Source of the DNA: a virus
Taxonomy: Duplodnaviria; Caudoviricetes
Virus record (IMG/VR): IMGVR_UViG_3300029288_000076
Location: 122,387 to 186,386 of that record
Reading direction: 5' to 3' (one strand)
Length of the DNA stretch: 64,000 bases
Shown: positions 3,397 through 37,910 of the stretch, piece by piece
How the letters are laid out: each line of letters opens with the position of its first letter
How positions within the stretch are numbered: the first letter of the stretch is position 1
The notes under the pieces: model-generated
The model's input: only the letters and a program-made list of their open reading frames with translations
Database searches by the model: none
Told to the model about the DNA's origin: nothing
Made by a program: the position numbers and the translations under genes

Positions 3397-4731
3397 TTAT
3401 AGTCCTCCCTTTCCTATTGCTTTGTATAAAAATCCTAACTCTGTTACTTTAACAGAATCAAAAACATTTCTTCCATCTACAATTATAAAAGTATTCATCA
3501 AACCTTTAATATCTTCAAGATCAATAGCTAGATATTCTTTATGCTTAGTAGCTACTACCAAGGCATCAGAATCTTTCAAAGCAGTTTTAATGTTATTTGT
3601 TAAATTAACACCATGAAATTCTTTTACATAAGGATCATGGACTATAACTTCCGAACCTAAAGATAATAATTGATGAACCAAATCATAAGTAGGACTATTT
3701 CTAATGTCATCTGAATTTTCAAGATAAGCAGCTCCCAGTATAGCTACTTTTATATTGGTAAAACGTTTCTCTTTAATTGTTAAGCATTCATATAGTAAAC
3801 TAATGATATGATGAGGCATAGAATTATTAATACTTCTTGCTAACTCTACGAATTGAGTATGAACAGTTTTCTTTCCATATAACTTAAGACCATATAGCAA
3901 TAACCAAGTATCTTTTGGAAGACAGTGGCCACCAACTCCAGTTCCTGGCAAATGCATCATTCTCTCAGATCTAGTATTTATAAGCTCTTGTACTTCATAC
4001 ACATTAATTCCAAGACTTTCACAAATTAAAGCCATTTCATTTGCAAAAGCTATATTAACGTCCCTATAAGCATTTTCAATAGTTTTTGTAGCTTCAGCTG
4101 TTTTTATATTTGTAGTATAAATTGGAGCCTTTATTATTGATGAATATAGCTTCTTAGCTCTATATTCACTTTCTTTATCAAACCCACCTACTATTCTTGG
4201 AAGTTCTTTTATAGATTGTAATAGCTTTCCGGGCATTAGTCTTTCAAATGAATAAGCCAATAAAAAATCTTTTCCTGCTTTTAAACCTGTTTGCTCTATA
4301 ATTGGTATTATTATGTTTTCAGTAGTTCCTGGAGCAAGAGTAGATTCTATAATTATAAGCGCTCCTGACTTCATCTTCCAACTCATTTCATGAATTGCTT
4401 CTTTAAGATCAATATAATCTGGTTCATTATATTGATTTACTGGAGTTTGAACGCAAATTATAATAATATCTCTGTCACTTAATCTTGAATAATCATCAGT
4501 AGCATAAAAAGACTTTTTATCCACAACTCTTTTAATTAATTCTGCTAATTCAGGCTCATCACCATTTATAGTAGATTCACCAGCATTAAGTGTTTTTATC
4601 TTCCATTCACTATTCTTTGCTCCTTTCTCTAAACCTACAACATGATTGTCTTCAACATCAGCTAATAATGCTGCGCACGGGAGACCAACATATCCCATTC
4701 CTATTACTGCTATTTTTACTTGATTGTTCAT
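3397..4731 (-). CDS. UDP-N-acetylhexosamine 6-dehydrogenase (WecC/WbpA family nucleotide-sugar dehydrogenase)
   Basis: GMGYVG Rossmann motif, CVQTP, IESTLAPGTT, ENAYRDVNIAFANE, catalytic GGHCLPKD, DGRN. Confidence 0.92.
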   Translation of the reverse strand: MNNQVKIAVIGMGYVGLPCAALLADVEDNHVVGLEKGAKNSEWKIKTLNAGESTINGDEPELAELIKRVVDKKSFYATDDYSRLSDRDIIIICVQTPVNQYNEPDYIDLKEAIHEMSWKMKSGALIIIESTLAPGTTENIIIPIIEQTGLKAGKDFLLAYSFERLMPGKLLQSIKELPRIVGGFDKESEYRAKKLYSSIIKAPIYTTNIKTAEATKTIENAYRDVNIAFANEMALICESLGINVYEVQELINTRSERMMHLPGTGVGGHCLPKDTWLLLYGLKLYGKKTVHTQFVELARSINNSMPHHIISLLYECLTIKEKRFTNIKVAILGAAYLENSDDIRNSPTYDLVHQLLSLGSEVIVHDPYVKEFHGVNLTNNIKTALKDSDALVVATKHKEYLAIDLEDIKGLMNTFIIVDGRNVFDSVKVTELGFLYKAIGKGGL

Positions 4732-4734
4732 ACT

Positions 4735-6579
4735 TTAATGAATCACATTACTAAATTGACCTTCCCTACGAACAGTCAACTTGTCAGGAACTAAAGGATC
4801 AAGCAAAGAATTGTGATTAACTAAGAAAATAGAATTTAATCCACCTTCTTCTGCTAATTTATTTTTTAACAAAGAAATTACAGCTTCGCACCCACTTAAA
4901 TCAAGAAACGAAAACGTTTCATCAAGAATTAAAACGTTACTTTTATTTGTAGTAACTAGATCTCTAAGAGCAAAAAGAACAGACAAATTCAACCTTGTTT
5001 TTTCACCACCAGAAAGAGATTGGTAATCATATTCAATTCCATCAATACTGATATTAAATGAAATCTTTTCTCTTTCCTCCCCAGACTTAAGTATAGCTTT
5101 ATTAGAAAATAAAACTTCTATATTTGTATAACCTATTTCACTAAGATAGAAATTAATTTGTTGGTTAAAAACGTCAATTATATTATCCAAAATAAAACTA
5201 CGTATTCCTTTTTTCCCAAAAGATTTTTCCCAAAAAGAAAGTATCTTTCTGTCTTCAATATACTTCTTTTCTTTTTTCTCTTCTTCATCAACTTCATCAG
5301 CTAATTTAACAAGATCTTTTTGTATTTTCTCGATATCTTTTTCTAAATTAGGGATAGTTAAGTCTTTCTCGTTTATTCTACTTTCAAGGTCTTTTAACCT
5401 TGATGTTAGATTATCAATTTCTTTTTGTTTTAATTTAACATCATTTTTTAACTTTTCTTGATTTCTAAAAGACTCTCTCGCTTGCTTTTCTAGCTTTACT
5501 ACTTCTTCATTTAGGCCAGCCAACTCCTTTTTCATTTCAGTTTGACTAAGATTGTTATCAGCCAGCTCGGCTTTAATAGGAATAAGTAACTCTTCAAAAG
5601 AATTTATAAGCTCTTCTTTATTAGCTTCAAATACTGAACCACAAGTTGGACATTCTCCAGCATTAATGACTTTAATTTTATCTATATATTTCCTTTGTTC
5701 TCCTTCTAGCTTTATTTCTTCTCTTTCAGCAGAAAGTAATTTTGTTTTTATCTTTTCAACTTCTTCTTTTTTCTTTTCAACTTTATCATCATTATTTTCA
5801 TCATACTCTAAATTACTTAAATTAAATTGTAACTTTTCAAGTTCAGAATACAATGGCTTTAAAGCAACATTTATTTTATCTTTTTCTCCTTTTAATTCCC
5901 AATGCTTTTGTTTTTGAATCTCTTCATAAGCTTCTTTGTTTTTTTCTAGCACATCAAGATTTTCTATATAAGCCTTTAATCTTGTATTTAGATCTTTCAC
6001 CACATATTTTGATTCATTCAAAAGTATATCAATGTTTTTAATATCAAGATCTACTTTACTACGACCAATTTCAAACTTTATAAGATTTAGAATCTTGTCA
6101 AACAAATCTTTTTGATTTGCGTCTGTTGAATCAATAAAGAAGCTTGCTCCTTCTTGAGAAATATAAGAAAGAATTTGAAAAATTTCTTGTGAAATATTTA
6201 AGCGCTCATAAAGAACTGCTTCTGTTTCTTTAATAGTTTTTTTCTGAAATTCTTTTTGACCTTTTCGTAAAATAAGATTATTTCCAAATTGAGAATGCTT
6301 TCTATAACGCTCAACAATCAGACCATCATCAAATTCTACAGTCGCAATACAATCTTTATCGATTACTTTATTAACTACAGAATCTCCTGAAATGCCTTTT
6401 GTTGTGGTTCCAAAAAGACAAAAGAAGATAGCTTCAGATAAAGATGTTTTTCCTACCCCATTAGAAGTAAAAAATCTATCTTCCGATTCACCAACAATCT
6501 GAACTAATCCTTGGCCTTTTAGATTAACTTCAAAATCTTTAAAGCACATAAAGTTCTGAGCTGAAACTTTAGAGAACAT
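4735..6579 (-). CDS. sbcC: SbcC/Rad50/gp46-like ABC ATPase
   Basis: NGVGKT Walker A, coiled coils, CPTC zinc hook, LSGGE signature, LILDE Walker B. Confidence 0.93.
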   Translation of the reverse strand: MFSKVSAQNFMCFKDFEVNLKGQGLVQIVGESEDRFFTSNGVGKTSLSEAIFFCLFGTTTKGISGDSVVNKVIDKDCIATVEFDDGLIVERYRKHSQFGNNLILRKGQKEFQKKTIKETEAVLYERLNISQEIFQILSYISQEGASFFIDSTDANQKDLFDKILNLIKFEIGRSKVDLDIKNIDILLNESKYVVKDLNTRLKAYIENLDVLEKNKEAYEEIQKQKHWELKGEKDKINVALKPLYSELEKLQFNLSNLEYDENNDDKVEKKKEEVEKIKTKLLSAEREEIKLEGEQRKYIDKIKVINAGECPTCGSVFEANKEELINSFEELLIPIKAELADNNLSQTEMKKELAGLNEEVVKLEKQARESFRNQEKLKNDVKLKQKEIDNLTSRLKDLESRINEKDLTIPNLEKDIEKIQKDLVKLADEVDEEEKKEKKYIEDRKILSFWEKSFGKKGIRSFILDNIIDVFNQQINFYLSEIGYTNIEVLFSNKAILKSGEEREKISFNISIDGIEYDYQSLSGGEKTRLNLSVLFALRDLVTTNKSNVLILDETFSFLDLSGCEAVISLLKNKLAEEGGLNSIFLVNHNSLLDPLVPDKLTVRREGQFSNVIH

Positions 6580-9653: not shown

Positions 9654-9675
9654 ATACTATATTATATTTTAAAAA
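9654..9675 (-). promoter_or_regulatory. Conserved phage promoter-like motif TTTTTAAAATATAATATAGTAT
   Basis: Identical 22 bp at 32886-32907; contains TATAAT. Confidence 0.6.
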
Positions 9676-9682: not shown

Positions 9683-10732
9683 TTACAAAAACTTGTTTAA
9701 AACTTCCATTATTCTTTCTACAGCATGACCGTCCCATAATTTATTAATTTTATAATATAAAATGTTCAAATTTAAGAATTTATTAACTAAATCATTTATG
9801 GTTTTTTGATCTTCAGTTACAAAATTATTCCCATGCAAAGTAGTAACTTTATGCGGTGTATGATAATTATATGTAATACAAGGTTTATGTAAAATATAAG
9901 ATTCACATTGAACTCCACCACTATCTGTAATAACAAAAGAAGCATTACATAATTTATTAATGAATTCTGAATAACTCATTGGCTCAACTAACTCTATGTT
10001 TTTTGATAAATATCGTTTATCAAACATAAAGACTTCTTTTATTCTAGGGTGAGCAGATAGTATAACAGGAATCTTATCTGCTACATTATTTAAGATTTCC
10101 AAAATACTTCTAAAACCATTATCAACATTTTCTACACGGTGAAAAGTAGCTAAACAATACTGCTTGCTATTAAAATCAATCCACTTTGTATGGTGTAATC
10201 TTATTGAATCAGCTAAAACGTTACCTACAAGATGTCCATTTGCTAAGGTCTCACTCTTCAAATTTATCATTCCAGATTCTTCAGTTACAAAATTATATGT
10301 TGACATATGATCAATAAGTTTTCTGTTTATCTCTTCTGGAAAGTCAAATCTTCCAACTCTTAAGCCTGCTTCTACGTGAGCGATGGGAAAGTCTTTTTTC
10401 TGAGCAAACAAAGTTCCAGCCAAAGAAGAATTCATATCACCAAATACTACAAACAAATCAGTAAAGCTTTCTAGAGAAAGGTTTTCAAAATATAACTTTT
10501 CTAGTTCAATAAGAATTGAACCTGTTTGGTGAGCATGACCTTTTCCTGAACGCTCTAATCTATAATCAGGTTGGAAACCAAATTCATCAAAGAATACTTG
10601 GCTCATAGAATTTGAATAGTGTTGTTCTGTAAAGATAATTTTATAGTTAGTAAAATTAATCTTTTTAAAATACTCTATAAACGGATAGAGTTTTACAATA
10701 TTAGGTCTACCACCAATACAAAAAACAATCAT
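9683..10732 (-). CDS. UDP-N-acetylglucosamine 2-epimerase family (WecB/WbpI-like)
   Basis: GGRPN, QHY, GDMNS, HVEAGLR, PEEINR, HRVEN, TDSGGVQ. Confidence 0.92.
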   Translation of the reverse strand: MIVFCIGGRPNIVKLYPFIEYFKKINFTNYKIIFTEQHYSNSMSQVFFDEFGFQPDYRLERSGKGHAHQTGSILIELEKLYFENLSLESFTDLFVVFGDMNSSLAGTLFAQKKDFPIAHVEAGLRVGRFDFPEEINRKLIDHMSTYNFVTEESGMINLKSETLANGHLVGNVLADSIRLHHTKWIDFNSKQYCLATFHRVENVDNGFRSILEILNNVADKIPVILSAHPRIKEVFMFDKRYLSKNIELVEPMSYSEFINKLCNASFVITDSGGVQCESYILHKPCITYNYHTPHKVTTLHGNNFVTEDQKTINDLVNKFLNLNILYYKINKLWDGHAVERIMEVLNKFL

Positions 10733-11068: not shown

Positions 11069-11376
11069 TCCATCTTCTCCTTCAGCTTCTCAACAAAAAC
11101 ATAAACATCTTTTATAAAATCAGCATGGTCTTCTAAGCTTTTATTTTTCTTTCTTCCAAATTCATTATACTCTTCAATAAAACCTTCACACAACTTTAAA
11201 ATACTTATAGCTTTATTTAAATGAAAATATTGAGCAGAAACTTTTTTAAGTTTTTCTTTCTCTTCATCAGCATAATCATTCAAACCTCTCGCTTGAGGAG
11301 GCATCATTGTTATAAGTTCTTCTTGATGTTTTGCTTCTTTAGAAAATTCTTCAAGATAAGCTATTGTTTTGTTCAT
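11065..11376 (-). CDS. Hypothetical protein
   Basis: Overlapping start/stop coupling on both sides. Confidence 0.5.
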   Translation of the reverse strand: MNKTIAYLEEFSKEAKHQEELITMMPPQARGLNDYADEEKEKLKKVSAQYFHLNKAISILKLCEGFIEEYNEFGRKKNKSLEDHADFIKDVYVFVEKLKEKME

Positions 11377-12149
11377 CTAAATCTTCCTTTAAAATAATAA
11401 CGAAGTTTGCAAACAAGATTACAATGATCCATGTTTTGACACATCACTAAACTTGGTTCATGCCAAAGATGAGCGCCATAAATATTATCTGGATAGATTG
11501 CTTTAATCCCATAGTTTGCCATATTATAATGAAGCATAATGTCACACCAAGGACGTTTAATATCATCTAACAACTCCATATCCTTCTTTCTAATGGCACC
11601 AAGAAAAAAGTAATTTTGAATCGCTACTTTTCCAGATCTTATAGTTGGGGGATTAATTTGCCAATCTTCATTAACTAATTTTAGCCATCCATAAAAATTA
11701 TTTACATTGTTAGCTTTTTCAGTTAATTCTTTATTCACATTTGCTACAGTACAAAAAGAAGCTTGGTCAGGCAAACAATTATCAACCAAAGTTTGTAGAA
11801 TATTATCGCTCATATAAACAACATCAGCAGACTGCATCACTATAATATCAGTATCTTCAGGAACAAAATCAACTATAAAGCTCATCATTGTATCAAAACT
11901 ATAATGTTGATCAAGTCTTTTATATTTCACATTATGAAAATAGCTTTTAATAATTGACTCAGGATCTATAGTAGAATTATCATCTACTATACAAAGCTGG
12001 TATTCAAAATCAGTTTTCTGCTTTGTTAAAGAATAGAGTACATATGGGAGCAACTTCTCTTTATTGTAAGTTGGCATATAAATTGAAACTTTCATTATTC
12101 TAAACCATTTATTTATTTTTGTTCTAAACAAGCTCCACAATGAGGACAA
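11373..12149 (-). CDS. GT2-like (GT-A) glycosyltransferase, paralogue 1 of 6
   Basis: PTYNK, CIVDDNS, QSADV, WCD, HLWH, C-x5-C-x3-C. Confidence 0.8.
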   Translation of the reverse strand: MSSLWSLFRTKINKWFRIMKVSIYMPTYNKEKLLPYVLYSLTKQKTDFEYQLCIVDDNSTIDPESIIKSYFHNVKYKRLDQHYSFDTMMSFIVDFVPEDTDIIVMQSADVVYMSDNILQTLVDNCLPDQASFCTVANVNKELTEKANNVNNFYGWLKLVNEDWQINPPTIRSGKVAIQNYFFLGAIRKKDMELLDDIKRPWCDIMLHYNMANYGIKAIYPDNIYGAHLWHEPSLVMCQNMDHCNLVCKLRYYFKGRFR

Positions 12150-12640: not shown

Positions 12641-13008
12641 TTAATTTTTTCTCGTCCAAATCTTTTAGATTCATTTTCTATAGCTTGCAAAATAACTTCT
12701 TCTTGATGTCTTATAGACGTTAATTGCCGCTCGTAGCTTTTTCTTACATTTAAGCAATCAATACAATAATAAGGAGCTCTATAGTCGCCACCCCAAGTAT
12801 CAGCCTCTAATTCCCATTCCCCTCCAAAACAATTGCCACAAACTTCTCTTTTACAACCATCAAAATTTGCTCCCCATCCACCAGCTTGACCACACTCCCA
12901 TAAGTTTTTAGCTTCTTCTCCGCATCTATCGCAATAATATTTTGTTATTAATTCCTCATGTTCTAGAATTAATTCGTCCGGAACTATTTTAGAAATTACC
13001 TTCTTCAT
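12637..13008 (-). CDS. Cys-rich hypothetical protein
   Basis: CDRC, CGNC, CIDC. Confidence 0.5.
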   Translation of the reverse strand: MKKVISKIVPDELILEHEELITKYYCDRCGEEAKNLWECGQAGGWGANFDGCKREVCGNCFGGEWELEADTWGGDYRAPYYCIDCLNVRKSYERQLTSIRHQEEVILQAIENESKRFGREKIK

Positions 13009-13802
13009 TTTACTTTCCTCAATATCTTTGAGTCAGAAACCCAAGTATTCCAAACAGGGTTTTCTTCTTTTAAATAAATTCCATCTTCTTTCCATGATTT
13101 AACATATTTAACCAATAATATAAAATGTCTTTTATTATTATTCTGTTTAGTATATTCAACTCTCCAAACTGCTCCTTCACATTCTTCCAAAGCTCCTTCT
13201 CTACCTTCTTTAGGATAAAAATTAAATTCTTCAACAGAATAACCTGTTTCACCTCTATAAAGTAAATAAGGAATGTTAAATCTACTATTACCAAGAGCAT
13301 GATTCTTGTTAATAATTTCTTCAAAAGTTATTCTTTCATTTTCAGAATTAAAATAATCAAAAATGAAAAATGGTTCTTTCTTAAAATTGTATTTTGTTCC
13401 ATGAGCTTGAATACACCACTCACCTATTACTCTATCGCCAGGGTTAAGCAATTCTAGAAATCTATCTTTCTGTTCAAAAACCCATTCATGAAATATCTGG
13501 TGCATCTTAAAAGGTGATGTATTTGCTACATATCCAGCTCTAGTTAATGGTACAACAGTATCTTCATATCTAAGAATGCCTACGTTTGAACCATCAATTT
13601 TTTCAGTAACTAAAACTATACGCTTTGGTAATTTATCATTCTCAATAGCCATCTTCTCATGACCTGGAGAAGCTTTACTGTCAGATGGACCAAGTCTTGA
13701 TCCGCTAAGATGTGGAATTGATCCATAATTCTTAATACCAAGTGGTTTTCTTTCAAATATGTTCATTTTTCTATATAGCCTTTTCCTTTGCATCTCAAAC
13801 AT
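13005..13802 (-). CDS. ATP-dependent RNA ligase (Rnl2-like nucleotidyltransferase domain)
   Basis: TEKIDGSN (motif I), GEW, FD, EGAVWR, VKYV. Confidence 0.8.
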   Translation of the reverse strand: MFEMQRKRLYRKMNIFERKPLGIKNYGSIPHLSGSRLGPSDSKASPGHEKMAIENDKLPKRIVLVTEKIDGSNVGILRYEDTVVPLTRAGYVANTSPFKMHQIFHEWVFEQKDRFLELLNPGDRVIGEWCIQAHGTKYNFKKEPFFIFDYFNSENERITFEEIINKNHALGNSRFNIPYLLYRGETGYSVEEFNFYPKEGREGALEECEGAVWRVEYTKQNNNKRHFILLVKYVKSWKEDGIYLKEENPVWNTWVSDSKILRKVK

Positions 13803-13917: not shown

Positions 13918-14679
13918 TCACTTCCAATTTTGTTTCCATATATCTAATTTCCTTACACAGTGAGATTTACAATTTTTCAAAACATTACAACCATAAGGAA
14001 TTTTCAAATGTCTTTGATGAATACCTTTTAAATCTGACATCAAATTAACTTCGTAATTCAACTCTTTCATTTTTTCTTTTATTATCACATCACAAGCATT
14101 CATTGTAAAGCCAAGCTCAATAAAATCGTGTATTGTCATAGCACCAAGAAAGAAATAAGGATCTTGTCCAGACCTCCCAGAATAAACTGTTTTTTGCTTA
14201 TTAAACACCACATTACCAAATAATATATCGATTTCAGTATCAAATTGTTCCCAGTTATCTAAAATATCTTTTGTATTATTATCAAAGTCTGTATAAAAAT
14301 CATCTTCAATAGGAATATCAACAACTTCAGCAATAGAAGGCTTTGAATCAAACGTATTATAAGCAAGATCAGAAACTATATTATCAGTTACATAAATAAC
14401 ATCACAAGCAGATAGAATTATAATATCAATATCATCAGAAGCTAATCCAAAACATTTACCATGTGAAAACTGAGTTCCAACTCTTTTATCAAGTCTCTTA
14501 TATTTTACGGGAAAATTAGTTATAAGCTCATCAATAATAGGTTTAGGATCAATATCAGAATAATCATCTATAATACATATTTCAATAGGAAAATCAACTT
14601 TCTGTCTGCTGATAGAATATAGAGTATTTGCAAATTGATTATTTTTATTGTACGTAGCTAAAAAAATTGCTGCTTTCAC
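13918..14679 (-). CDS. GT2-like glycosyltransferase, paralogue 2
   Basis: ATYNK, CIIDDYS, SACDV, ACD, HQRH, C-x5-C-x3-C. Confidence 0.8.
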   Translation of the reverse strand: MKAAIFLATYNKNNQFANTLYSISRQKVDFPIEICIIDDYSDIDPKPIIDELITNFPVKYKRLDKRVGTQFSHGKCFGLASDDIDIIILSACDVIYVTDNIVSDLAYNTFDSKPSIAEVVDIPIEDDFYTDFDNNTKDILDNWEQFDTEIDILFGNVVFNKQKTVYSGRSGQDPYFFLGAMTIHDFIELGFTMNACDVIIKEKMKELNYEVNLMSDLKGIHQRHLKIPYGCNVLKNCKSHCVRKLDIWKQNWK

Positions 14680-14867
14680 TTTATATATGTTTTACCTAAC
14701 AAATAACCAACACCATTACAAAGCGGACATGGCACTGGCCAACCATGACCACCTGGTTGAAATCTTCCTAGTCCAAAGCACATATGGCATGATTCTTTAT
14801 TAATAATCTCAATTTCTACAGTAGTAAACTCTGTCTTTTTTATCTTATTATTTTCAAATTCCATCAT
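14676..14867 (-). CDS. Small DnaJ-type Zn-finger protein
   Basis: CHMCFGLG...CPLCNGVG. Confidence 0.55.
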   Translation of the reverse strand: MMEFENNKIKKTEFTTVEIEIINKESCHMCFGLGRFQPGGHGWPVPCPLCNGVGYLLGKTYIK

Positions 14868-14938
14868 AGTACCTCACAGAAAAAGAAGAACAGCATGGCA
14901 AAATCAACTTCTACCTATTATCTTATTTAAATCTTTCT

Positions 14939-15712
14939 TCATTTCAACTTCCTAATACAATGATAACTACAAGACTCAATATCTGGACAATCATAAACTT
15001 TTTTAAGATGGCGCTGATGAATAGCTTTTACCTCTGGAACTAAAATTGCCTGAAGCCCTTGCTCTTTCATTTTGTGTTTAACAACTGCATCACAACTATT
15101 TTCTATAAATCCTATATCTATTAAATCTTTTTTCTTTATAGCTCCACAAAACAAAAGCCAACTTGTCCAATTTTTGCCAGTATAAATAGTCCATTGCCTT
15201 TCATATACTCTTTTGTCTATAGGAAGCTCAAGTTGATGAATATGACTTTCCCAATCATCTAAAATCCATTTAACATTCTCATCATAACTTTTATAAAAAT
15301 CTTCATCTATAGGTATGTCAACTACTTCAGCTAATGTAAATTTTTTATCTTCAACTTTCTCAACAAGCTTTTGCAAATCATCTGATCTAGTTAAAATTAT
15401 ATCAGCTCCAATCAGAACAATAATATCTGACTCTTCAGCTATCAAATCCATTCCAATACCTTGAGTTTTATTAAATGCTGAATGCTTATCAAGTCTTTTA
15501 TATTTATAAGTAACTTCTTCATTAATACAAAACTCTTTAATAATTTTATAAGGATCAGTATCAGAATGATCGTCAACAAAACAAACTTCATACTCAAAAT
15601 CAGTTTCTTGCTTACCCAAGCCAAACAAATAGTTTCTTAGTTGGTCTTCTTTATTCCATATTGCAGTTAAAATAGAAACTTTCAAGATTTTTTCTCCATC
15701 TCTTCCTTCCAA
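14939..15712 (-). CDS. GT2-like glycosyltransferase, paralogue 3
   Basis: AIWNK, CFVDDHS, GADI, SCD, HQRH, C-x5-C-x3-C. Confidence 0.8.
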   Translation of the reverse strand: MEGRDGEKILKVSILTAIWNKEDQLRNYLFGLGKQETDFEYEVCFVDDHSDTDPYKIIKEFCINEEVTYKYKRLDKHSAFNKTQGIGMDLIAEESDIIVLIGADIILTRSDDLQKLVEKVEDKKFTLAEVVDIPIDEDFYKSYDENVKWILDDWESHIHQLELPIDKRVYERQWTIYTGKNWTSWLLFCGAIKKKDLIDIGFIENSCDAVVKHKMKEQGLQAILVPEVKAIHQRHLKKVYDCPDIESCSYHCIRKLK

Positions 15713-17491: not shown

Positions 17492-17493
17492 TT

Positions 17494-25250: not shown

Positions 25251-26281
25251 AGAAATCGATTCAAGATATTTAAAGACGCATTATAATCTGCATCGGTAGT
25301 GTAACCACAACTCTTACACTTAAATATCTCACCATTTCGATTCTCCTTGTGGACTGCTTTGCACATTGAGCATTCTTGGCTCGTGTAAGCAGGATTAACT
25401 TTGTGAACGTGGACACCACTTATTTCACATCGTTGCCTTAACCTATTTAAAAAATATGAATAAGACCACCGTTGTAACTTATTATTAAATTTCTTGGTAA
25501 ACTTACCTTTACTGTGCTTCTTTACATTTTTAAGATCCTCCACAACTAGAATTTTGATAGTTTCAAAAGGAATTTCTTTTGTTACTCTATTAATATAATT
25601 ATCTCGTTCTATTAGTTTCCTTTTAAATGCTTTAGAACCTTGTACTTTTCTTGAAATATTTTCAATTTTCTTTTCTAATTCAGTTCCTATTTGTTGTTTT
25701 GTAGAAAGAACTGCCAGCTTCTTATATCCACAATCAAGACCTATAGCTTTTCCTGTTTCTTTTAATGTAACATCTTTCTGGAAAAATAAATCTACAAAAA
25801 ATGCTCCATCAGATCTTTTTCTAAGTCTAATTGACTTTTTAAGATTCCAACTTTCAAAACTATTAAAATGCTCATGTTTTTTAGATGGGATTTTAAAGAC
25901 AAAATGATTACCAATATTCCAAAATTTTATCCATATATCAAAAGAAGTTGAAATATTAAAATTAATAGTAACAAAATTTGAATTGAGAATAATATTTTTC
26001 TTTTTAAAAACTGGTTTTATCTTCTTTTTCTTTTTTCTTTGGCTCTTGACTATTTGTAACGCTTGTTGAGCTAGAGATTGTTTCAAAGCAGGAGATAACC
26101 ATGTATCTCCAACAAGATCATAAATAGATTTATATACATAATTCCCTTCAAATACATTATTATCATAGAAAATAGAAATATACTTGTTAATAACTTTTGC
26201 TGATTCCTCTAGCAAAGAACCTAAAATTTGTAATTTGCCAGTGTTTGCTTTATTAATAGATATAGTTGATTTTCTAATCAT
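25202..26281 (-). CDS. tnpB: TnpB RNA-guided endonuclease (IS200/IS605/IS607 superfamily), solo
   Basis: RuvC-I GLDCG, RuvC-II VEDL, VNPAYTSQECSMC...FKCKSCG zinc finger, RuvC-III DADYNASLNI. Confidence 0.92.
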   Translation of the reverse strand: MIRKSTISINKANTGKLQILGSLLEESAKVINKYISIFYDNNVFEGNYVYKSIYDLVGDTWLSPALKQSLAQQALQIVKSQRKKKKKIKPVFKKKNIILNSNFVTINFNISTSFDIWIKFWNIGNHFVFKIPSKKHEHFNSFESWNLKKSIRLRKRSDGAFFVDLFFQKDVTLKETGKAIGLDCGYKKLAVLSTKQQIGTELEKKIENISRKVQGSKAFKRKLIERDNYINRVTKEIPFETIKILVVEDLKNVKKHSKGKFTKKFNNKLQRWSYSYFLNRLRQRCEISGVHVHKVNPAYTSQECSMCKAVHKENRNGEIFKCKSCGYTTDADYNASLNILNRFLLQEPTDPVQENYNTL

Positions 26282-27804: not shown

Positions 27805-28740
27805 TTAAACTAAAATATTCCTAAAATCAAACACAAACTTGTTCCAATCATTTAAAATGCTTTCAAACTCATACTCTTCTATTTTTTGTTTAAATTTATC
27901 TAAATCAATTTTTCTATTTAAGTATTGAAGCTCAAATTCTTCAAATATTAACTCTTCATATCCTAACTCTTTTACCAATTCTCCTAATTTGAAAAGCTTA
28001 TAATTTCTTTTTAAAAGATCTAGAGCATCTTCAGTAAACAGATTCTTATACTTTTTCTTTTCAATTAAATCTGTTTTTATTCGTTCATAATTATCTATAA
28101 CGTTCCCATAAGTATTTACTAAATCTGTTGCTGTTTTTGGCCCTATGCCATCGATTCCTCTAACATTATCACTCATATCACCAAGAAGTATCTTGTAATA
28201 AATAAAGTTTTCAATACTATTTATACCAGTTTTCTCAGAAAAGTTATCTACAGTAACCAGCTCGTTTTTATTTGGATTGCACCATGCCACATTTGTGTCT
28301 ACTGCTAAATAAAGATCTCTATCAGTAGAAATAATTACGACCTCTTCATTACTACTAAAGAAACTTGCCAATAGATGAATTGAGTCATCAGCCTCTATGC
28401 CTTTGATTCTTACGTTTATAATACCTATTAGGCTAAGAATGTCATATAATTCGTTTAATTGATTTAAAAATTCTAAATAAAATTCATCTGAACCTGGATT
28501 ATTCTTTCTATTTTCTGCCCTATTAGTTTTATAAGTATTTAATAGATCAAGACGATAATGCACTTTCCCAAAATCATAACACATCACAACCATTGATGGA
28601 GAAAACTTTTTGAGTACGCTTCTTAGCATATTCAAAACTCCATAAACAACGCTTACTCTCTGACCCTTAGAGTTAGATAAATCTAAAGTAGAATTGGCAC
28701 GAAATGCGAAATTATTTCCATCAATAATACAAATGGTCAT
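27805..28740 (-). CDS. 5'-3' exonuclease / flap endonuclease (Pol I N-terminal / T4 RNase H family)
   Basis: IIDGNN, YKTNR, EADD, STDRD, GDMSDNVRGIDGIGPKTA. Confidence 0.93.
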   Translation of the reverse strand: MTICIIDGNNFAFRANSTLDLSNSKGQRVSVVYGVLNMLRSVLKKFSPSMVVMCYDFGKVHYRLDLLNTYKTNRAENRKNNPGSDEFYLEFLNQLNELYDILSLIGIINVRIKGIEADDSIHLLASFFSSNEEVVIISTDRDLYLAVDTNVAWCNPNKNELVTVDNFSEKTGINSIENFIYYKILLGDMSDNVRGIDGIGPKTATDLVNTYGNVIDNYERIKTDLIEKKKYKNLFTEDALDLLKRNYKLFKLGELVKELGYEELIFEEFELQYLNRKIDLDKFKQKIEEYEFESILNDWNKFVFDFRNILV

Positions 28741-29360
28741 TCTGTTTCCTCTATTACTTTTTTGCCATGATGAATTTTATTATGCTCTCCAGGAGTTACT
28801 AGTTGCAAATTTATTAATTCGTTATTTTTTCTATTGCCATCTATATGATGAATATGGTAACCCTCTGGTATCAAACCATTAGCTTCTTCCCATATATAAC
28901 GATGCAATGATTTTCTTTTATCACCTTTAACATATATTGAAGTATATGTGCTTGTATCAATAATTTCACCCTTCCACATATAATTTTTTTCTCTCTTAAG
29001 AGATTCGCTTATTTTATGTTTTTGCTCTTCTGGCAAATGCCTACCTTTTAATGTATTACTTATTTTTTTTCTACATTCCTCAGTAATACATCTGCCCTTT
29101 AACTTAACACTTAATAGTTTTCTAGTCTCATCTGAAAATATTCTTCCCTTTAATTTATCGCTTAACTTTCGCTTATGCTCTTCTGATAAGCTCTTTCCTT
29201 TAAATCCAACATTAGGATTGTTAATAATTTGCCATTTGCTAGAACAAGAAACGCTACAAAACTTTTTACTTTCTTTACTTTTAAACTTAATTACAATTTC
29301 ATTATTACACTGTAAACAATATTTTTTTATCTTATCATTTCTATCACAATATTTTATCAT
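28737..29360 (-). CDS. Free-standing HNH homing endonuclease with NUMOD3 repeats
   Basis: SEEHKRKLS repeats; HRYIW...IHHIDGNRKNN..NL. Confidence 0.88.
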   Translation of the reverse strand: MIKYCDRNDKIKKYCLQCNNEIVIKFKSKESKKFCSVSCSSKWQIINNPNVGFKGKSLSEEHKRKLSDKLKGRIFSDETRKLLSVKLKGRCITEECRKKISNTLKGRHLPEEQKHKISESLKREKNYMWKGEIIDTSTYTSIYVKGDKRKSLHRYIWEEANGLIPEGYHIHHIDGNRKNNELINLQLVTPGEHNKIHHGKKVIEETE

Positions 29361-32914: not shown

Positions 32915-33352
32915 TTACCTTGTAACTTTCACATCATTGTTGTACTCTTCCCTCATTGAATACCCATAAGCTTTCATAGAATCTCGCTTCATAAGCAATG
33001 AATCTTTGCAAGCTCTTAGAACTTCAGCTACATAAATTGCCTCATTATATTTTTCTTTTAACTCAACTAAAGTCTCATCACCAATTACTTCTTGCCGTAT
33101 TTTAGCTTCTGTAACTTTTTTATTAGTTGTTTCATAAGATTCTCTAATAGTCATATCAAGTTTAGATTCTAAAAGCTCAATAGCTGATTTAAGTTTACTA
33201 GCCTGCCATTGAGCTTTTGCATAAAGAAATGCATACCACGAAAATGTTCCAGGAAGTTTAGTAGCTTCACCAGTAAAATCAGTTTCATCAAATTTTGCCT
33301 CATCAAGAATGTTAATTTCATATTCTTGGTTAAAGATTTTTACTTTCTCCAT
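32915..33352 (-). CDS. UvsY-like recombination mediator
   Basis: Helical 145-aa protein with KVTEAKI motif next to SSB/RecA. Confidence 0.55.
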   Translation of the reverse strand: MEKVKIFNQEYEINILDEAKFDETDFTGEATKLPGTFSWYAFLYAKAQWQASKLKSAIELLESKLDMTIRESYETTNKKVTEAKIRQEVIGDETLVELKEKYNEAIYVAEVLRACKDSLLMKRDSMKAYGYSMREEYNNDVKVTR

Positions 33353-33816
33353 TACAGATAATCCTCACTAAAAAAGTTTCTAATTTTAACTCCAGCGTTT
33401 TTGAAAATAATTAATGAATATATCGTATTATATTCACTCTCAAATACAACTTCTTTAATTCCAGCAGTTATTATAAGTTTTGCACATTCTGAACATGGCG
33501 TTTCTGGAGTATAAATAACAGATTTATGCATACCACCCAATTGTATACCAAATCTTGCGCATGTTCCTATTGCATTAACCTCTGCATGAACGCATAAAAC
33601 TGTCTCCATATTATTACCAGAAACAACTACACTTCCGCCATTACATTTATCTCGTTTACACAAAGAAGTATCTGACCCAAATGGCGGACTATTCCATCCT
33701 TCAGAAACAATTCTTCCATCAAGTGCAATTATGCATCCAACTTTTCTAGTTTTGCATGTTGACTGCTCTTTAACGCGCATCATTATATCATAAAAATACT
33801 TATCAGGATCTTTCAC
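33352..33816 (-). CDS. dCMP deaminase
   Basis: STC..RKVG, GWN, HAEVNAI, PCSEC. Confidence 0.92.
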   Translation of the reverse strand: MKDPDKYFYDIMMRVKEQSTCKTRKVGCIIALDGRIVSEGWNSPPFGSDTSLCKRDKCNGGSVVVSGNNMETVLCVHAEVNAIGTCARFGIQLGGMHKSVIYTPETPCSECAKLIITAGIKEVVFESEYNTIYSLIIFKNAGVKIRNFFSEDYL

Positions 33817-34810
33817 TTTCTGACCTCAAAAAGTGTTTGTAACAATTGCAATTTTCTAATTCGTAAATAAAATTTTCATGCGGCAAGTTAAACTTCTTGC
33901 ATAAGAGAACTAAAGTTAACTGCTTCCAATACATTGAAATATTACAATTCATTATTTCATCTATAAAATAGCTAGCATTAATAGATGCGTCTGCACTTCT
34001 TATCAACCTTTCTAATCTGCATATAATATTCAAATCACAATCTTCACTATAAATATCGCTATTTACAAATTCCATTTTTGGCATTGAAAAATATTGTTTG
34101 TTTTTTTCATCTACAATATTGTGCCCTTTTTCATAGAATTTATCATAAATATGAAATGAATTACAGATGTGTGTATATGCACCAACTTCAACATTTAATA
34201 AAATTGCTAAAATCTCTTGAAACATTGTAAAACTAAATGCATCATAAGGAGTTCCCCAAATAACATCTTGGGACCGCATATGTGTAATCATATGCAATTT
34301 ATTTTCTCTTACAAAAAACTGCAAGTCTAAAGTACATACTTGATCTTTGGTATGCTTAAGAGAATCTTGTGGAGTCTTTATATGAATAATAGCATGCCTT
34401 GTATAAAGATCTTCTTCAAATTTCTTTATAACAAAATCAAGCTGATCAAATCCTATATCCTTATTTGCGCCAAAAATTCTATTTCCATAAGCAGAATTAA
34501 GAGTTAAGCCATCGTCACTAAAATTATCAAAATTCTTAGAATAATATTTCATTGTGGCTAAATCATCTCTTCCACTCCAATACCATAAAAACTCACCTAT
34601 AGCGAATGGCAAACTAATCTTGCGCTTTTTAGAAAAAATAAGTCTATTTCTAATATTTGTTAAGCAAAATCCACTAGCTAAAATTTCGGTGTTCTCAAGA
34701 CATCTACATTTTACTTTGCTACCAAAAGCAAATATTGCGTCTATCATATCTTGATAAATATAATCCATATTGGTAGCACTATTAAAGTAAGTCATTATAA
34801 CATCTCCCAC
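33803..34810 (-). CDS. Thymidylate-synthase homologue, dCMP hydroxymethylase-like (Asp-type)
   Basis: KDQVCT catalytic Cys; RSQDVIWGTPYD has Asp where dUMP enzymes have Asn; NSFHIY. Confidence 0.8.
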   Translation of the reverse strand: MGDVIMTYFNSATNMDYIYQDMIDAIFAFGSKVKCRCLENTEILASGFCLTNIRNRLIFSKKRKISLPFAIGEFLWYWSGRDDLATMKYYSKNFDNFSDDGLTLNSAYGNRIFGANKDIGFDQLDFVIKKFEEDLYTRHAIIHIKTPQDSLKHTKDQVCTLDLQFFVRENKLHMITHMRSQDVIWGTPYDAFSFTMFQEILAILLNVEVGAYTHICNSFHIYDKFYEKGHNIVDEKNKQYFSMPKMEFVNSDIYSEDCDLNIICRLERLIRSADASINASYFIDEIMNCNISMYWKQLTLVLLCKKFNLPHENFIYELENCNCYKHFLRSESERS

Positions 34811-35874
34811 TTTCTATATTCAAAAATATTATTTAGAATATCATCAACAGCATCTTTTGCAATTCTTTTATTCATACTAATAAATTCTTCAAGCAACTCG
34901 CCGTAGATATTTGTATCATAAATTTCTCGCATTTTTTTTGCCATCTCGAAACCATCTTGAACAAGCATGTATTTAGGAAAATATTTATCTGCATTAAGAA
35001 TGTTACTATCACAAAAACAAAGTATGTTTGCGCTTACGCACTCAAAAGTTCTGATTGTCATTAAGCCAACTACTTCATATATATTCCTTGCTATTTGAAA
35101 AGAAAACATAGAGTCTGATAGCTTTTTAATAACATTTATAGGAGATATTTTACCTTTGAATTGCACATTAGCTTCATTCATAAGATTGTTAGAAAATTCT
35201 TTTGTTTCTTCCCTTAACCAATTACCATAAATCTTCATTGATCTTAGGTCGGCTGGGTACGGATTAGCAAAAGTATAAAGCATTCTTCTTCTTCCATATT
35301 CATTACCTACATACACACAATCTTCATACTCAGCTGCTCTTTTCTTCTCAATTAAACTTTTATTTGTAAAAGTAAAATAAGGCCAAAAAATAGAATTTTT
35401 AAAAAAAGCATCTTCACTATGCGGCCTTAATACAATTGCATTTGAAAGCACATTTTTTGGATAGTTTTTTACCCAAAAATCAGTATCAATAATAAATGGA
35501 AGCACGCTTTTTTTATCAATAAATTTTTTAAGAAGATCAATTAGCACAAAATAATCACTATCAAATTGCTCAGCGTATATCTTTCTATAAAACCCCATAG
35601 CAGGCCTAGATTCTGCAATTAACAAATCATAATTATTAACATTAATATTGCTACATTCAACATATGCTATTTTATTTATTATGTTCGCAAAATTATTATC
35701 TATATATTTTTTAGTTTCTTCATCCGCATTGTCTTCTAAAAGCCTTCCAGTAAAGGTTATATTATTATTTCTTGATAAAAGGTTCTCAAACAATTCTAGT
35801 CTAAGAGTTATTGAACCATCAACACTAATATTTTTAGCGTCATATCTTCCAACACCATACCACAATATATTCAT
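34795..35874 (-). CDS. T4 beta-glucosyltransferase-like GT-B DNA glycosyltransferase
   Basis: FKGKISPINVIKKLS and MTIRTFECVSANILCFCD resemble T4 BGT FTGKIPMNMVSEKNS and ITLRVWETMASDAVMLID (recalled); adjacent to the TS homologue. Confidence 0.65.
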   Translation of the reverse strand: MNILWYGVGRYDAKNISVDGSITLRLELFENLLSRNNNITFTGRLLEDNADEETKKYIDNNFANIINKIAYVECSNINVNNYDLLIAESRPAMGFYRKIYAEQFDSDYFVLIDLLKKFIDKKSVLPFIIDTDFWVKNYPKNVLSNAIVLRPHSEDAFFKNSIFWPYFTFTNKSLIEKKRAAEYEDCVYVGNEYGRRRMLYTFANPYPADLRSMKIYGNWLREETKEFSNNLMNEANVQFKGKISPINVIKKLSDSMFSFQIARNIYEVVGLMTIRTFECVSANILCFCDSNILNADKYFPKYMLVQDGFEMAKKMREIYDTNIYGELLEEFISMNKRIAKDAVDDILNNIFEYRKWEML

Positions 35875-36434
35875 TATTTCTCCTCTTCGAGAATAGACAT
35901 AATGTCTAAATAAACAATATCTGCATTTGCGTTCGCGCCATTATATGTTGTGTCATATTTAATAAATTTAAAAGGAGATTCTGACAAAAACTTCTCATAT
36001 TCAAATATAAAAGCTTTAATTTTATCAAAACTATAATTGCTATCAATTCCTTTTTTATCACTTTGTATTCTTTGCAAAATAGTTATTGGATTAGCACAAA
36101 ACAATAAAAAGACAACGCTATCTGCGATAAATTTATAATACTGTTCATAAACTTTATTCTTATCTAAATCCAAATTTATTTTTGGATAAACTATATCAGA
36201 AAGAAACGACCTGTCAAAAAATATAGGATTTCCTTTAGACAGTCCATTTATAAACGGAATAAGTTTTAACATTAATAAATTTTCGCCAGTTATTAGTGAA
36301 GTAAAATCAGAGTCAAATTCATTTTTAGAAGGTCTTGTTGGGTGATAATAAAAAGCCTTTGGATACCTTTCCATTACTTTCTTTAAAATAGAAGTCTTGC
36401 CTGTCTTATCAAACCCTTCAAATATAAAAATCAT
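35874..36434 (-). CDS. dNMP (thymidylate-kinase-like) kinase
   Basis: FEGFDKTGKTS P-loop, FDRS. Confidence 0.82.
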   Translation of the reverse strand: MIFIFEGFDKTGKTSILKKVMERYPKAFYYHPTRPSKNEFDSDFTSLITGENLLMLKLIPFINGLSKGNPIFFDRSFLSDIVYPKINLDLDKNKVYEQYYKFIADSVVFLLFCANPITILQRIQSDKKGIDSNYSFDKIKAFIFEYEKFLSESPFKFIKYDTTYNGANANADIVYLDIMSILEEEK

Positions 36435-36437
36435 AAT

Positions 36438-37145
36438 TTATCCGCAAAAATTGTCATATAAAGACTTTATCCTAATCGCCTCATCATAATAATATTCAAA
36501 TTGTTCTTCTTTAGTGATTCTCTTATATTTAAAATACGCTGGATGTTTTATCTTGAAAAGGCTAAGATTTTCATGCCCGCTTGCTGCAAGGAAATTTTTT
36601 ACTTTATCTCCTATAGCAATAAAGACCTTACCATTAGTATTATTAAAATTTAAATAATCAAGTTGATCTCTTGTCCAATATTCAAAACAATTATTGAACG
36701 CTTCATCGGTATAATTATTTTTTTCAAAAGGACATTTTGCAACATTAATGAAATTCCAATTATTATCTTTACCATAAAATATATTAGAAAAAATATTTGT
36801 AACCATTCCTATTTCTGTTGATAAAATCACTTTTTCATAAGAAGAAACCATTGCATCAAAATCATTATTTAAAAAAGCCTCTATCATTTCTTTATCATAT
36901 TGAGACGTTTTCGTATTTTTATTTAGGTTCGATTTCCAATCCCCAGGATTGATACCTATAAATGTTATAAAATTTTTATCTCTTATTATGCCATATTGCG
37001 GCGGCATAATCCACCCATTTATTTGCGAGCACTTACTACAAGATAAAAATTTTTGCTTGTCTATATTACTCAGAATCATTATTTCTAATTCTCTTTTTAT
37101 ACTTACTATTTTTTCTTTTCTTATTATGAAAAGCAACATGCTCAC
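36438..37145 (-). CDS. Uracil-DNA glycosylase superfamily protein, family-4-like (start probably MILSNID)
   Basis: CSKC, IGINPG, NVAKCP, C..YW, AIG, KHPAY. Confidence 0.7.
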   Translation of the reverse strand: MSMLLFIIRKEKIVSIKRELEIMILSNIDKQKFLSCSKCSQINGWIMPPQYGIIRDKNFITFIGINPGDWKSNLNKNTKTSQYDKEMIEAFLNNDFDAMVSSYEKVILSTEIGMVTNIFSNIFYGKDNNWNFINVAKCPFEKNNYTDEAFNNCFEYWTRDQLDYLNFNNTNGKVFIAIGDKVKNFLAASGHENLSLFKIKHPAYFKYKRITKEEQFEYYYDEAIRIKSLYDNFCG

Positions 37146-37530
37146 TTTGAGTCATTATTTGCAAATTTGATAAATCATTATTAAATCCATCACCATTTAC
37201 ATGGTGGATAATATACCCTTCTTGAATTAATCCATAAGCTTCTTCACATACAAAACGATGCATTTGTTGCCTTTTCCCATTACCTATACCTATTAAAAAA
37301 TGAGAACCGCTTTTTGATATACCGTTATTCCAGTTTGGATTCTTATTGCCAGTTAATGCATCACCTATTTGTTTTTTAGATTTTTCTGAATGATTTTTTC
37401 CATTAAAACCAAAATTTGGATTATTAATATTATGCCATTTATTAATACATGCTCTGCTACAAAATATTCTTTTTCCAGCATTTTCTTTAACTATGATTTC
37501 TTTATTACATTGCTTACAATATATTATCAT
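37066..37530 (-). CDS. Free-standing HNH homing endonuclease
   Basis: CKQC..FCSRAC, GKNHSE, HRFV...IHHVNGDGFNN..NL. Confidence 0.85.
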   Translation of the reverse strand: MIIYCKQCNKEIIVKENAGKRIFCSRACINKWHNINNPNFGFNGKNHSEKSKKQIGDALTGNKNPNWNNGISKSGSHFLIGIGNGKRQQMHRFVCEEAYGLIQEGYIIHHVNGDGFNNDLSNLQIMTQSEHVAFHNKKRKNSKYKKRIRNNDSE

Positions 37531-37910
37531 TTAAATCCTTGTCTATTCTCACTTTCCAGTCTATCCCTAACAACGCTTGATTTTAATGAAAATTCTTTCC
37601 AAAATTCTTCTTCATCTTTACAGCATAAATTTATTATATTTAATAAAAACTTTAGAACGTCGACGCATTCTTCTCTTAAATGATCAAAATCAATTTCTTT
37701 TTCTGGCTCATGCAATTTGTACCCAATAAGATCTAGGACTTCAACTGCCTCTTCAATTATATTGGTCGCATACCGCTTTATTTCTTCTTTTACTTCATTA
37801 TTTGTAAGCAAATTATAATCTTCATTTTTAATTTTTTTAAAAATAGTTTCACAAAAATCTTGCTGTTCTTCCATTGCTTCTTTAAAATTTTTAACATCAA
37901 CTTTTTTCAA
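37527..37910 (-). CDS. All-alpha NTP pyrophosphatase (dCTPase/dUTPase, MazG-like)
   Basis: EEAVEVLD...EECVDVLKF. Confidence 0.78.
   Translation of the reverse strand: MKKVDVKNFKEAMEEQQDFCETIFKKIKNEDYNLLTNNEVKEEIKRYATNIIEEAVEVLDLIGYKLHEPEKEIDFDHLREECVDVLKFLLNIINLCCKDEEEFWKEFSLKSSVVRDRLESENRQGFK

Follow-up and report, generated by a model that had tools for sequence, protein, structure and literature searches.

Two gene modules in the last 64 kb of a phage record

We analysed a 64,000-nucleotide stretch of DNA (the window), the final 64 kb of the 186,386-bp IMG/VR record IMGVR_UViG_3300029288_000076 from an uncultured phage. It carries a candidate pathway for glycosylated 5-hydroxymethylcytosine (hmC) together with a large set of sugar and glycosyltransferase (GT) genes. 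The record has a GC content of ~29% and is ~90% complete by estimate. Families were assigned by scans with Pfam, NCBIfam and PHROG. Positions 33352-37910 are referred to as module A and positions 3397-24932 as module B (Table 1). Positions are those of the window, while the prefix G000 denotes the whole record. Family assignments, a residue signature, fold matches and a neighbourhood pattern are computed results; substrates, acceptor and sugar chemistry are without exception inferred from them.

The minus strand holds every gene from position 1 to ~46 kb of the window, and modules A and B are co-oriented there. A previous reading of the letters alone (the sequence-only reading) had described one co-oriented block carrying cytosine-modification genes, uronate-sugar genes, tailoring enzymes and six GTs, and had proposed that together they build an oligosaccharide on modified cytosine. 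The listed genes indeed all lie on the minus strand, at 3397-37910. That reading had also seen no gene for a flippase, polymerase, lipid carrier or transmembrane GT in the window, an observation that a hydrophobicity scan of 340 open reading frames (ORFs) extended to the whole 186,386-bp record. None of the 340 ORFs has more than three candidate transmembrane segments, and three segments are reached by small ORFs only (76-130 aa). As no multi-pass membrane protein is found, genes for a flippase, polymerase or carrier are missing genome-wide. By the same scan, no Wzx/Wzy or ABC-type machinery (initiating phosphoglycosyl transferase, flippase/transporter, polymerase) was detected across 186 kb.

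Table 1. Genes of modules A and B, with the matches on which their assignments rest.
Feature	Position	Strand	Evidence
Nucleotide-sugar 6-dehydrogenase, closest to UDP-ManNAc dehydrogenase	3397-4731	-	Pfam three-domain match; TIGR03026 1e-118
WecB, non-hydrolysing UDP-GlcNAc 2-epimerase	9683-10732	-	Pfam Epimerase_2 6.1e-69; TIGR00236 227 bits vs 210 cut-off
Sixth Cys/His-signature GT-A	11373-12149	-	Pfam Glycos_transf_2 1.7e-13
Five tandem Cys/His-signature GT-A (GT2) paralogues	13918-18288	-	Pfam Glycos_transf_2
Tandem GT-A genes, individually	17494-18288, 16676-17491, 15682-16701, 14939-15712, 13918-14679	-	Pfam Glycos_transf_2
S-adenosylmethionine (SAM) methyltransferase, 313 aa	18288-19229	-	Pfam Methyltransf_12 2.9e-14
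Conserved 213-aa protein, weakly GNAT-like	19165-19806	-	Acetyltransf_3 E 0.072
SGNH/GDSL hydrolase or O-acyl-handling enzyme	19781-20398	-	Pfam Lipase_GDSL_2 3.1e-15
Conserved small protein, 121 aa	20391-20756	-	31-34% identity to L007 87-aa gene, same cassette position
SAM methyltransferase, 277 aa	20766-21599	-	Pfam Methyltransf_11 1.7e-7
Short-chain dehydrogenase/reductase (SDR), nucleotide-sugar epimerase/dehydratase	21596-22525	-	Pfam Epimerase 5.2e-41
Asparagine-synthase (AsnS)-like ligase without glutaminase domain	23153-24406	-	Pfam Asn_synthase 4.7e-53
dCMP deaminase, cd analogue	33352-33816	-	Pfam dCMP_cyt_deam_1 1.2e-19
Thymidylate synthase (TS) homologue, 5-hydroxymethyl-dCMP synthase signature	33803-34810	-	Pfam Thymidylat_synt 1.8e-29
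GT-B resembling beta-glucosyltransferase (BGT), candidate DNA hmC glycosyltransferase	34795-35874	-	Profile and fold match to T4 BGT
dNMP (thymidylate-type) kinase, candidate hm-dCMP kinase, gp1 analogue	35874-36434	-	Pfam Thymidylate_kin 4.3e-8
Uracil-DNA glycosylase (UDG)-superfamily-like protein, weak; module A neighbour	36438-37145	-	Pfam UDG 1e-4, 22.8 bits vs 24.3 cut-off
MazG/dUTPase_2-like all-alpha NTP pyrophosphatase, candidate dCTPase (gp56 analogue), weak	37527-37910	-	Pfam/PHROG/BLASTP

A hydroxymethylase-type TS homologue beside a BGT-like glycosyltransferase

The TS homologue was aligned against E. coli ThyA, T4 gp42 and SPO1 gp29, and its residues are given in E. coli ThyA numbering. 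C146, the catalytic Cys, and D169 are kept. L143 is replaced by Asp (KDQVC here against ALAPC in E. coli) and so is N177 (RSQDVIWGTPYD here versus RSCDVFLGLPFN in E. coli). Position 177 is Asp in T4 gp42 and MilA as well, and Asn in SPO1 gp29. According to Lee et al. 2026 (PMC13326640), N177D denotes a cytosine substrate and an acidic residue at position 143 denotes hydroxymethylation, while D169N is diagnostic of the newly found 5-hydroxy-dCMP synthases (RB69 gp48 / DLP3 gp80 type). Read by this rule, residues 143, 177 and 169 compose a 5-hydroxymethyl-dCMP signature. The Asn169 mark of 5-hydroxy-dCMP synthases is absent from the TS homologue, which retains Asp169 in the alignment. L143D, N177D and the kept D169 thus bear out the cytosine-type TS homologue announced by the sequence-only reading. 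The best PDB sequence match of the protein is the CMP hydroxymethylase MilA (1.6e-29), and no relatives of it were found in IMG/VR. It is the sole ThyA homologue of the genome, where a separate ThyX is encoded (G000:109340-109873), so that the ThyA homologue is not required for dTMP. ThyX, the ThyA homologue and the dCMP deaminase mirror td, gene 42 and cd of T4. In relatives, ThyX is intein-bearing (NCBI contig) or split into two matches (G001).

The neighbouring gene encodes a GT-B with no close relatives but itself; distant homologues number 86 (87 matches counting itself). The profile of this family aligns with T4 BGT over 172 columns (hhalign 96%, E 4.5e-9). An AlphaFold2 (AF2) model of the protein was obtained with a mean confidence (pLDDT) of 87.7. 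In a Foldseek search of the PDB with this model, T4 BGT occupied ranks 1-4 and 6 (the top five distinct entries), with a best value of 6.5e-10 and template-modelling (TM) scores of 0.54-0.62. The claim of a BGT-like GT therefore stands. The curated T4 glucosyltransferase models gave no match, the only hit being a weak one to Pfam Glyco_trans_1_2 (1.9e-4), and PHROG and PDB sequence searches returned nothing. Three contexts of distant homologues could be compared. All three have the gene beside a PolB gene, two of the three contain a TS homologue and two a UDG-family gene: L005 combines PolB with UDG, GT2, TS and deaminase genes, L020 combines PolB with serine hydroxymethyltransferase and TS genes, and L021 combines PolB with UDG. 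None of these three contexts contains a GT-A of the Cys-signature type found in module B. From its gene context, the BGT-like GT-B is a candidate hmC glycosyltransferase acting on duplex DNA.

Among the remaining genes of module A, the dCMP deaminase is an addition to the genes listed previously. The kinase also matches PHROG 761 thymidylate kinase (6e-15) and is confirmed, whereas the dNTPase of the sequence-only reading has only a weak MazG/dUTPase_2 match: Pfam dUTPase_2 1.1e-3, MazG 3.6e-3, PHROG dUTPase 1.7e-5, and a marginal BLASTP value of 0.002 across 43 aa to T4 gp56. Overall, the hydroxymethylase-type TS, the adjacent BGT-like GT-B and the contexts of its homologues make a T4-like glycosyl-hmC pathway well founded, and we consider glycosyl-hmC in the DNA of this phage to be likely.

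A UDG-superfamily gene directly adjoins the BGT-like gene in L005 (L005:11056-11655) and L021 (L021:1566-2234). The weak UDG-like gene of module A, which has a G-I-N-P-G motif, occupies the matching neighbourhood here. Its product had no PDB or NCBIfam match, and BLASTP to the L005 UDG was not significant. In an hmC phage, such a gene could act in the repair of uracil or be directed against DNA that contains cytosine.

A sugar cassette with six Cys/His-signature GT-A paralogues

The uronate-sugar set of the sequence-only reading is recovered in module B by Pfam and NCBIfam matches of the dehydrogenase, the WecB 2-epimerase, the SDR and the AsnS-like ligase. A counterpart of the dehydrogenase was found neither in the parts seen of G001, L007 and L008 nor among the genes listed for the NCBI relative. 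Orthologues of the SDR are present in L007, L008, L024 and G001 (47-68% identity). The AsnS-like ligase covers positions 173-517 of TIGR01536, that is, the synthetase domain alone. Its orthologues are 61% identical in G001 and 47% in L007, and an alignment search with it in IMG/VR gave no relatives. Its presumed role is uronate amidation. Of the tailoring set proposed previously, the SGNH enzyme and both methyltransferases hold; the GNAT assignment is weak, with an E value of 0.072. The GNAT-like protein is, at any rate, a conserved cassette member (52% identity to the L007 copy). SGNH orthologues are present in L007, L008 and G001, and the 313-aa methyltransferase is homologous to the C-terminal part of a 679-aa methyltransferase of L007.

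As had been claimed, the six GT-A proteins are paralogues; the other five share 26-33% identity with the first. Their alignment (A3) shows the invariant residues C53, D56, D57, D109, C202, D203, H227, H230, C237, C243 and C247. These shared Cys, His and Asp positions suggest that a Cys/His metal site was added to the GT2 core. The sixth paralogue has a 64% identical orthologue in G001. The AF2 model of a GT-A (pLDDT 91.3) had K4CP chondroitin polymerase as top Foldseek match (5.7e-13) and is closest to soluble glycosaminoglycan synthases, which use UDP-HexNAc and UDP-uronate. This nearness fits the chemistry of WecB and the dehydrogenase and is silent on the acceptor. TarP was among the sequence matches of the family.

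The family is rare. Only 16 matches were found in 5.8 billion cluster representatives, three of them being this phage's own. A Cys-GT-A gave no tblastn match in GenBank phages, which leaves the family without a cultured-phage carrier. A single metagenome scan for related loci returned the L007 contig and a 1.5-kb fragment only, and exact 40-mers of L007 and L008 were absent from IMG/VR.

Two other genes lie within the GT-A array: a 63-aa CxxC zinc-ribbon ORF (14676-14867; Anti-TRAP/DnaJ-CXXCXGXG-like match, 1.2e-6) and an RNA ligase gene (13005-13802; Pfam RNA_ligase). Another RNA ligase gene adjoins the related cassette in L024 (L024:18042-18677).

The cassette occurs elsewhere without visible cytosine genes

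Gene comparisons indicate that module B is a rare mobile cassette recurring in unrelated phage contigs, independently of module A. It was met in L007 (GC-rich), L008 (41% GC), L024, the NCBI relative and G001, with several genes 47-68% identical to those of the window. The AsnS-like ligase, the SDR and WecB accompany Cys-GT-A in every larger contig, and the SGNH enzyme and a methyltransferase do so in most. The GT-A copies number six here versus one to four in the other phages seen.

In the GC-rich L007/L012/L013 contig, the cassette directly follows the terminase, portal, scaffold and major capsid protein (MCP) genes. Pfam lists and tblastn revealed no TS, BGT-like, kinase or deaminase gene in 33.7/37.1 kb of this contig. 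In L008 and L029, the cassette lies within the head-tail module of a tape-measure-bearing phage. For L007, L008 and L024, no TS or BGT-like gene was seen within the available sequence, all comparison contigs being incomplete. Overall, in these three and in the BGT-like contexts, Cys-signature GT-A were not found to co-occur with a base-modifying enzyme across genomes. The closest relative, G001 (95 kb) and G002 (50 kb), showed no TS, BGT-like or Tet_JBP gene, the Tet_JBP search having been made without a positive control. Within the window itself, the nearest Cys-GT-A is ~15.5 kb away from the TS gene, with recombination genes, TnpB and homing endonucleases in between.

A capsid-linked Gtf3/GtfC-like GT-B accompanies the cassette

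L007 and L008 each carry, along with the cassette, a GT-B matching Pfam Gtf3_C. BLASTP identified a homologue in the present record, outside the window (G000:40604-41830), so that the cassette and this Gtf3/GtfC-like GT-B are found together in three lineages, this phage's included. The family profile matches GtfC (4w6q, 2.4e-10) and Gtf3 (3qkw, 8e-6). Here, the gene lies ~4.8 kb downstream of an SU10-type major capsid gene (G000:46590-47723), and between the two lie a radical-SAM gene, a pair of small paralogues and several other small ORFs. In eight further contexts, it lies no more than 1.2 kb downstream of the MCP gene and at most two genes off: the NCBI relative, L026, L007, L025, L027/L028, L030, L031/L032 and L033. 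These span three MCP families (SU10_MCP, Phage_capsid_4, Phage_capsid_3). A GT in or beside the capsid module is therefore found both here and in these eight contexts. A TS homologue was found in none of nine IMG/VR records bearing the Gtf3-like GT-B, all of which are fragments (14-69% complete).

The two small paralogues (124-125 aa) are encoded in tandem just downstream of the capsid gene (G000:45801-46562), and their Ser/Thr content is 23-24% overall. By their Atlas models they are similar to gp53-like or H-type-lectin tips of tail fibres, and L026 has a homologue placed between its MCP gene and its Gtf3-like GT-B. Possible roles are capsid decoration, or the accepting or binding of glycans. 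A radical-SAM gene stands beside the capsid-linked Gtf3-like GT-B at G000:43695-45104, L027:11702-12712 (SPASM domain) and L031:12322-13026; its recurrence hints at further chemistry in capsid-module islands of unrelated phages.

Neighbouring genes and motifs

The block also contains gp46/gp47-like, RNA ligase, UvsW, RecA/UvsX, gp32 and UvsY-like genes, a 5'-3' exonuclease, one TnpB and three HNH homing endonucleases. The replication flank (37914-45870) encodes a bacterial-type replisome: a DnaE-type polymerase (PolIII alpha with PHP domain), DnaG primase, DnaB helicase and a DnaC-like loader. Such a replisome together with T4-type recombination genes (gp32, UvsX, UvsW, gp46/47) and an SU10-type capsid is an unusual mosaic at 186 kb. 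In GenBank phages, 24 kb of the window had no megablast match.

Two TnpB genes with a Cas12f-like TNB domain are present, one between the modules (25202-26281) and one at G000:22385-23464; the relative G001 carries a homologous copy at 83.7-84.8 kb. Three HNH_3/NUMOD3 homing-endonuclease genes (22522-23169, 28737-29360, 37066-37530) are inserted in or beside the sugar cassette, UvsW and the hmC cassette. A promoter-like motif, (C/G)TAAGA-N7-8-TTTTTAAAATATAATATAGTAT, was observed upstream of genes at 9669, 32901 and at least eight further genome sites, and a second variant, TATGATGT(G/A)CA-N-TAAAATATAATA, is found ahead of DnaE and of the gene at 45867-46259. Because the TTTTTAAAATATAATATAGTAT motif precedes genes of both the replication and the structural regions, it carries no timing information. 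No enrichment emerged from a generic scan for sigma-70 promoters and terminators.

Two proposed systems, one acting on DNA and one probably on the virion

Taken together, the data are best explained by two separate systems, a T4-like glycosyl-hmC pathway (system A) and a mobile glycan cassette acting on a virion protein (system B). We give this reading a probability of about 0.55, and consider it more likely that the large glycan is carried by the virus particle rather than by DNA.

System A would be a T4-like, pre-replicative pathway of cytosine replacement. Its dC pool would be set by the MazG-like hydrolase and the dCMP deaminase, and 5-hydroxymethyl-dCMP would come from the Asp-type ThyA homologue, to be phosphorylated by the dNMP kinase. 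The hm-dC would then be incorporated by the phage DnaE-type polymerase, the separate ThyX providing dTMP, and the BGT-like GT-B would glycosylate hmC in DNA, probably with one sugar. System B would work with the Gtf3/GtfC-like GT-B, which may prime the glycan or act early. WecB and the dehydrogenase would supply UDP-ManNAc and UDP-ManNAcA, and these ManNAc-type sugars would be epimerised by the SDR and amidated by the AsnS-like ligase. The soluble Cys/His-signature GT-A would assemble the oligosaccharide, which the methyltransferases and the SGNH and GNAT-like enzymes would tailor. Its acceptor would most likely be a protein of the virion, either the major capsid protein itself or a small protein encoded close to it.

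The division into two systems has its weak points. Ser/Thr acceptor tags (at least 15 S/T per 30 residues, or at least 6 S/T in the last 12 residues) were detected in none of the ORFs of the genome, nor were serine repeats. DNA-hypermodification gene clusters can adjoin phage structural genes, and TarP-related GT-A enzymes act on DNA (Pyle et al., bioRxiv 10.1101/2023.12.21.572611), so that capsid adjacency alone leaves a DNA target possible. In this phage lineage, the cassette is not part of the structural operon but is surrounded by genes of recombination and replication, at a distance of 9 kb from the hmC cassette. The six GT-A copies would fit an added role, and the phage also has its own dehydrogenase. 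The comparison contigs being fragments, their missing TS is no proof. G001 and G002 lack the polymerase region, the expected site of an hmC cassette, and thus cannot decide whether the sugar cassette and hmC are linked.

These points bear on the proposal of the sequence-only reading, according to which the BGT-like enzyme primes hmC and the six GT-A, aided by the products of the sugar and tailoring genes, build on it a large DNA oligosaccharide with amide and methyl or acetyl groups. In its favour, both modules share one co-oriented block amid replication genes, every GT is soluble and 186 kb are free of lipid-carrier machinery. Phage GT-A and GT-B enzymes are known to make mono-, di- and trisaccharides on 5hmC in phage DNA (Pyle et al., bioRxiv 10.1101/2023.12.21.572611). 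Poly-arabinosyl-5-hydroxycytosine in RB69/DLP3 and tri-hexosyl cytidines have been described (PMC13326640), and YerA41 bears an oligosaccharide-like thymidine group of ~1,044 Da (PMC9023294). Moreover, the extra GT-A paralogues and the sugar dehydrogenase are absent from relatives. Against it, the cassette resides elsewhere in capsid or tail operons where no TS, BGT-like or kinase gene is visible; the other BGT-like contexts lack Cys-signature GT-A; the GT-B that partners it here and in L007 and L008 is tied to the capsid gene; and recombination, TnpB and homing endonuclease genes separate Cys-GT-A from TS here. The sequence-only reading had itself named GT and sugar genes occurring routinely in phages lacking the cytosine cassette as a sign against it. 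The co-occurrence of Cys-GT-A with TS and BGT-like genes was not found in the contigs compared, which comes near to that picture, with the limit that they are incomplete. Extension of the hmC sugar by the six GT-A and tailoring enzymes is thus not supported, and its fallback, virion glycosylation, is favoured by the capsid/tail-operon position of the cassette and by its capsid-linked partner. The glycan size presented as unprecedented was overstated in view of the published multi-sugar base modifications, of which a DNA oligosaccharide here, if true, would be a larger, chemically richer version. We hold the proposal to be unlikely. A variant in which a capsid-type cassette was co-opted to DNA in this lineage, every cytosine bearing a methylated or acetylated, uronamide-containing oligosaccharide primed by the BGT-like enzyme and built by the six GT-A, appears about as unlikely. 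The proposal and a reading with a host glycan or other acceptor are kept in consideration on account of the missing acceptor tags, the position of the cassette, the extra GT-A and the dehydrogenase, the DNA-glycan clusters known beside structural genes and the uninformative relative.

It is equally unlikely that the cassette remodels a host glycan or another non-virion acceptor during infection, such as a lipid-carrier surface polymer or a small molecule, perhaps to exclude superinfecting phages or to take over the host. Its enzymes recall those of O-antigen, teichuronic-acid and glycosaminoglycan pathways, with WecB and UDP-ManNAc-dehydrogenase-like enzymes encoded and a GT-A fold nearest to chondroitin and heparosan synthases, and an MFS transporter gene lies inside the L024 cassette. 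Bacterial polysaccharide GTs are mostly soluble enzymes that work on host carrier lipids. Yet genes for an initiating phosphoglycosyl transferase, a flippase, a polymerase or a ligase are missing from the 186 kb, both the cassette and the GT-B that goes with it repeatedly stand in head-morphogenesis operons rather than at lysogeny or moron positions, and characterised members of the partner's family glycosylate proteins. As to module A, the TS homologue might make dTMP or 5-hydroxy-dCMP and the BGT-like enzyme might use a non-DNA substrate, leaving no glycosyl-hmC. The best-coverage phage tblastn matches of the TS homologue do include SPO1-type dUMP hydroxymethylases and annotated thymidylate synthases, and the GT-B reaches no Pfam T4 glucosyltransferase model. 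This is nevertheless very improbable given Asp177, shared with T4 gp42 and MilA and not with SPO1 gp29, Asp169 in place of the 5-hydroxy-dCMP-type Asn, the supply of dTMP by ThyX, and T4 BGT as top fold match of the GT-B.

If true, the two-system reading has several consequences. System A would add an AT-rich phage whose polymerase is of the DnaE type to those with T4-type glycosyl-hmC. The BGT-like family involved is strongly divergent and has no name in the searched libraries, and knowing it would help to predict restriction- and CRISPR-resistant phage DNA. System B would be an unusually elaborate case of phage self-glycosylation outside actinobacteriophages, with acidic or amidated methylated sugars and a new, presumably metal-binding, Cys/His-signature GT-A family. 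It would bear on phage immune evasion, stability and host recognition. Were co-option to DNA true instead, the product would be the largest and chemically most complex cytosine modification known. In practice, GT-rich cassettes near DNA-modification genes should be assigned to DNA only after a co-occurrence test.

Comparison with known systems

The T-even hmC pathway consists of the gp56 dCTPase, the gp42 dCMP hydroxymethylase, the gp1 dNMP kinase, the cd deaminase and a beta-glucosyltransferase. System A resembles it in its enzyme roles, in Asp at TS positions 143, 177 and 169, and in its BGT-like fold. As in T4, where the order is polymerase, gene 42, beta-gt, uvsX, the GT adjoins the hydroxymethylase between polymerase and uvsX. 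Unlike in T4, the polymerase is DnaE-type and not PolB, a UDG-like gene is part of the cassette and the dCTPase assignment is weak. The GT-B is remote from T4 BGT, with 15-17% identity in structural alignment and a profile match to the C-terminal half.

Like the DNA-glycan clusters of other phages (Pyle et al.; RB69/DLP3; YerA41), this phage combines a base-hydroxylating enzyme, soluble GT-A and GT-B and sugar-nucleotide genes. In those clusters, the extra GTs cluster and co-occur with the base-modifying enzyme, whereas here the GT-A cassette follows a capsid-linked GT-B and occurs without a base-modifying enzyme in other phages. In contrast to RB69 and DLP3, the TS homologue keeps Asp169 and is therefore not of the 5-hydroxy-dCMP type.

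The capsid-linked GT-B matches, by profile and by Pfam Gtf3_C, the Gtf3 and GtfC enzymes (3qkw, 4w6q) of serine-rich-repeat adhesin O-glycosylation. GtfC and Gtf3 are extenders of O-glycans on serine-rich adhesins. Unlike in those systems, the match covers ~80 residues of the C-terminal domain, and the genome encodes no serine-rich repeat protein.

In mycobacteriophages, tandem soluble GTs and an O-methyltransferase target capsid and tail tube proteins (Freeman et al. 2023, as summarised in PMC11600133 and PMC12619734). In contrast to that system, C-terminal Ser/Thr tails were not found here, and most of the cassette lies amid replication genes. The two systems have in common phage-encoded tandem soluble GTs with a methyltransferase and a GT linked to structural genes. 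System B would differ from it by its other GT families and by a far bigger sugar-nucleotide and tailoring set, with uronate, amide ligase and SGNH enzymes.

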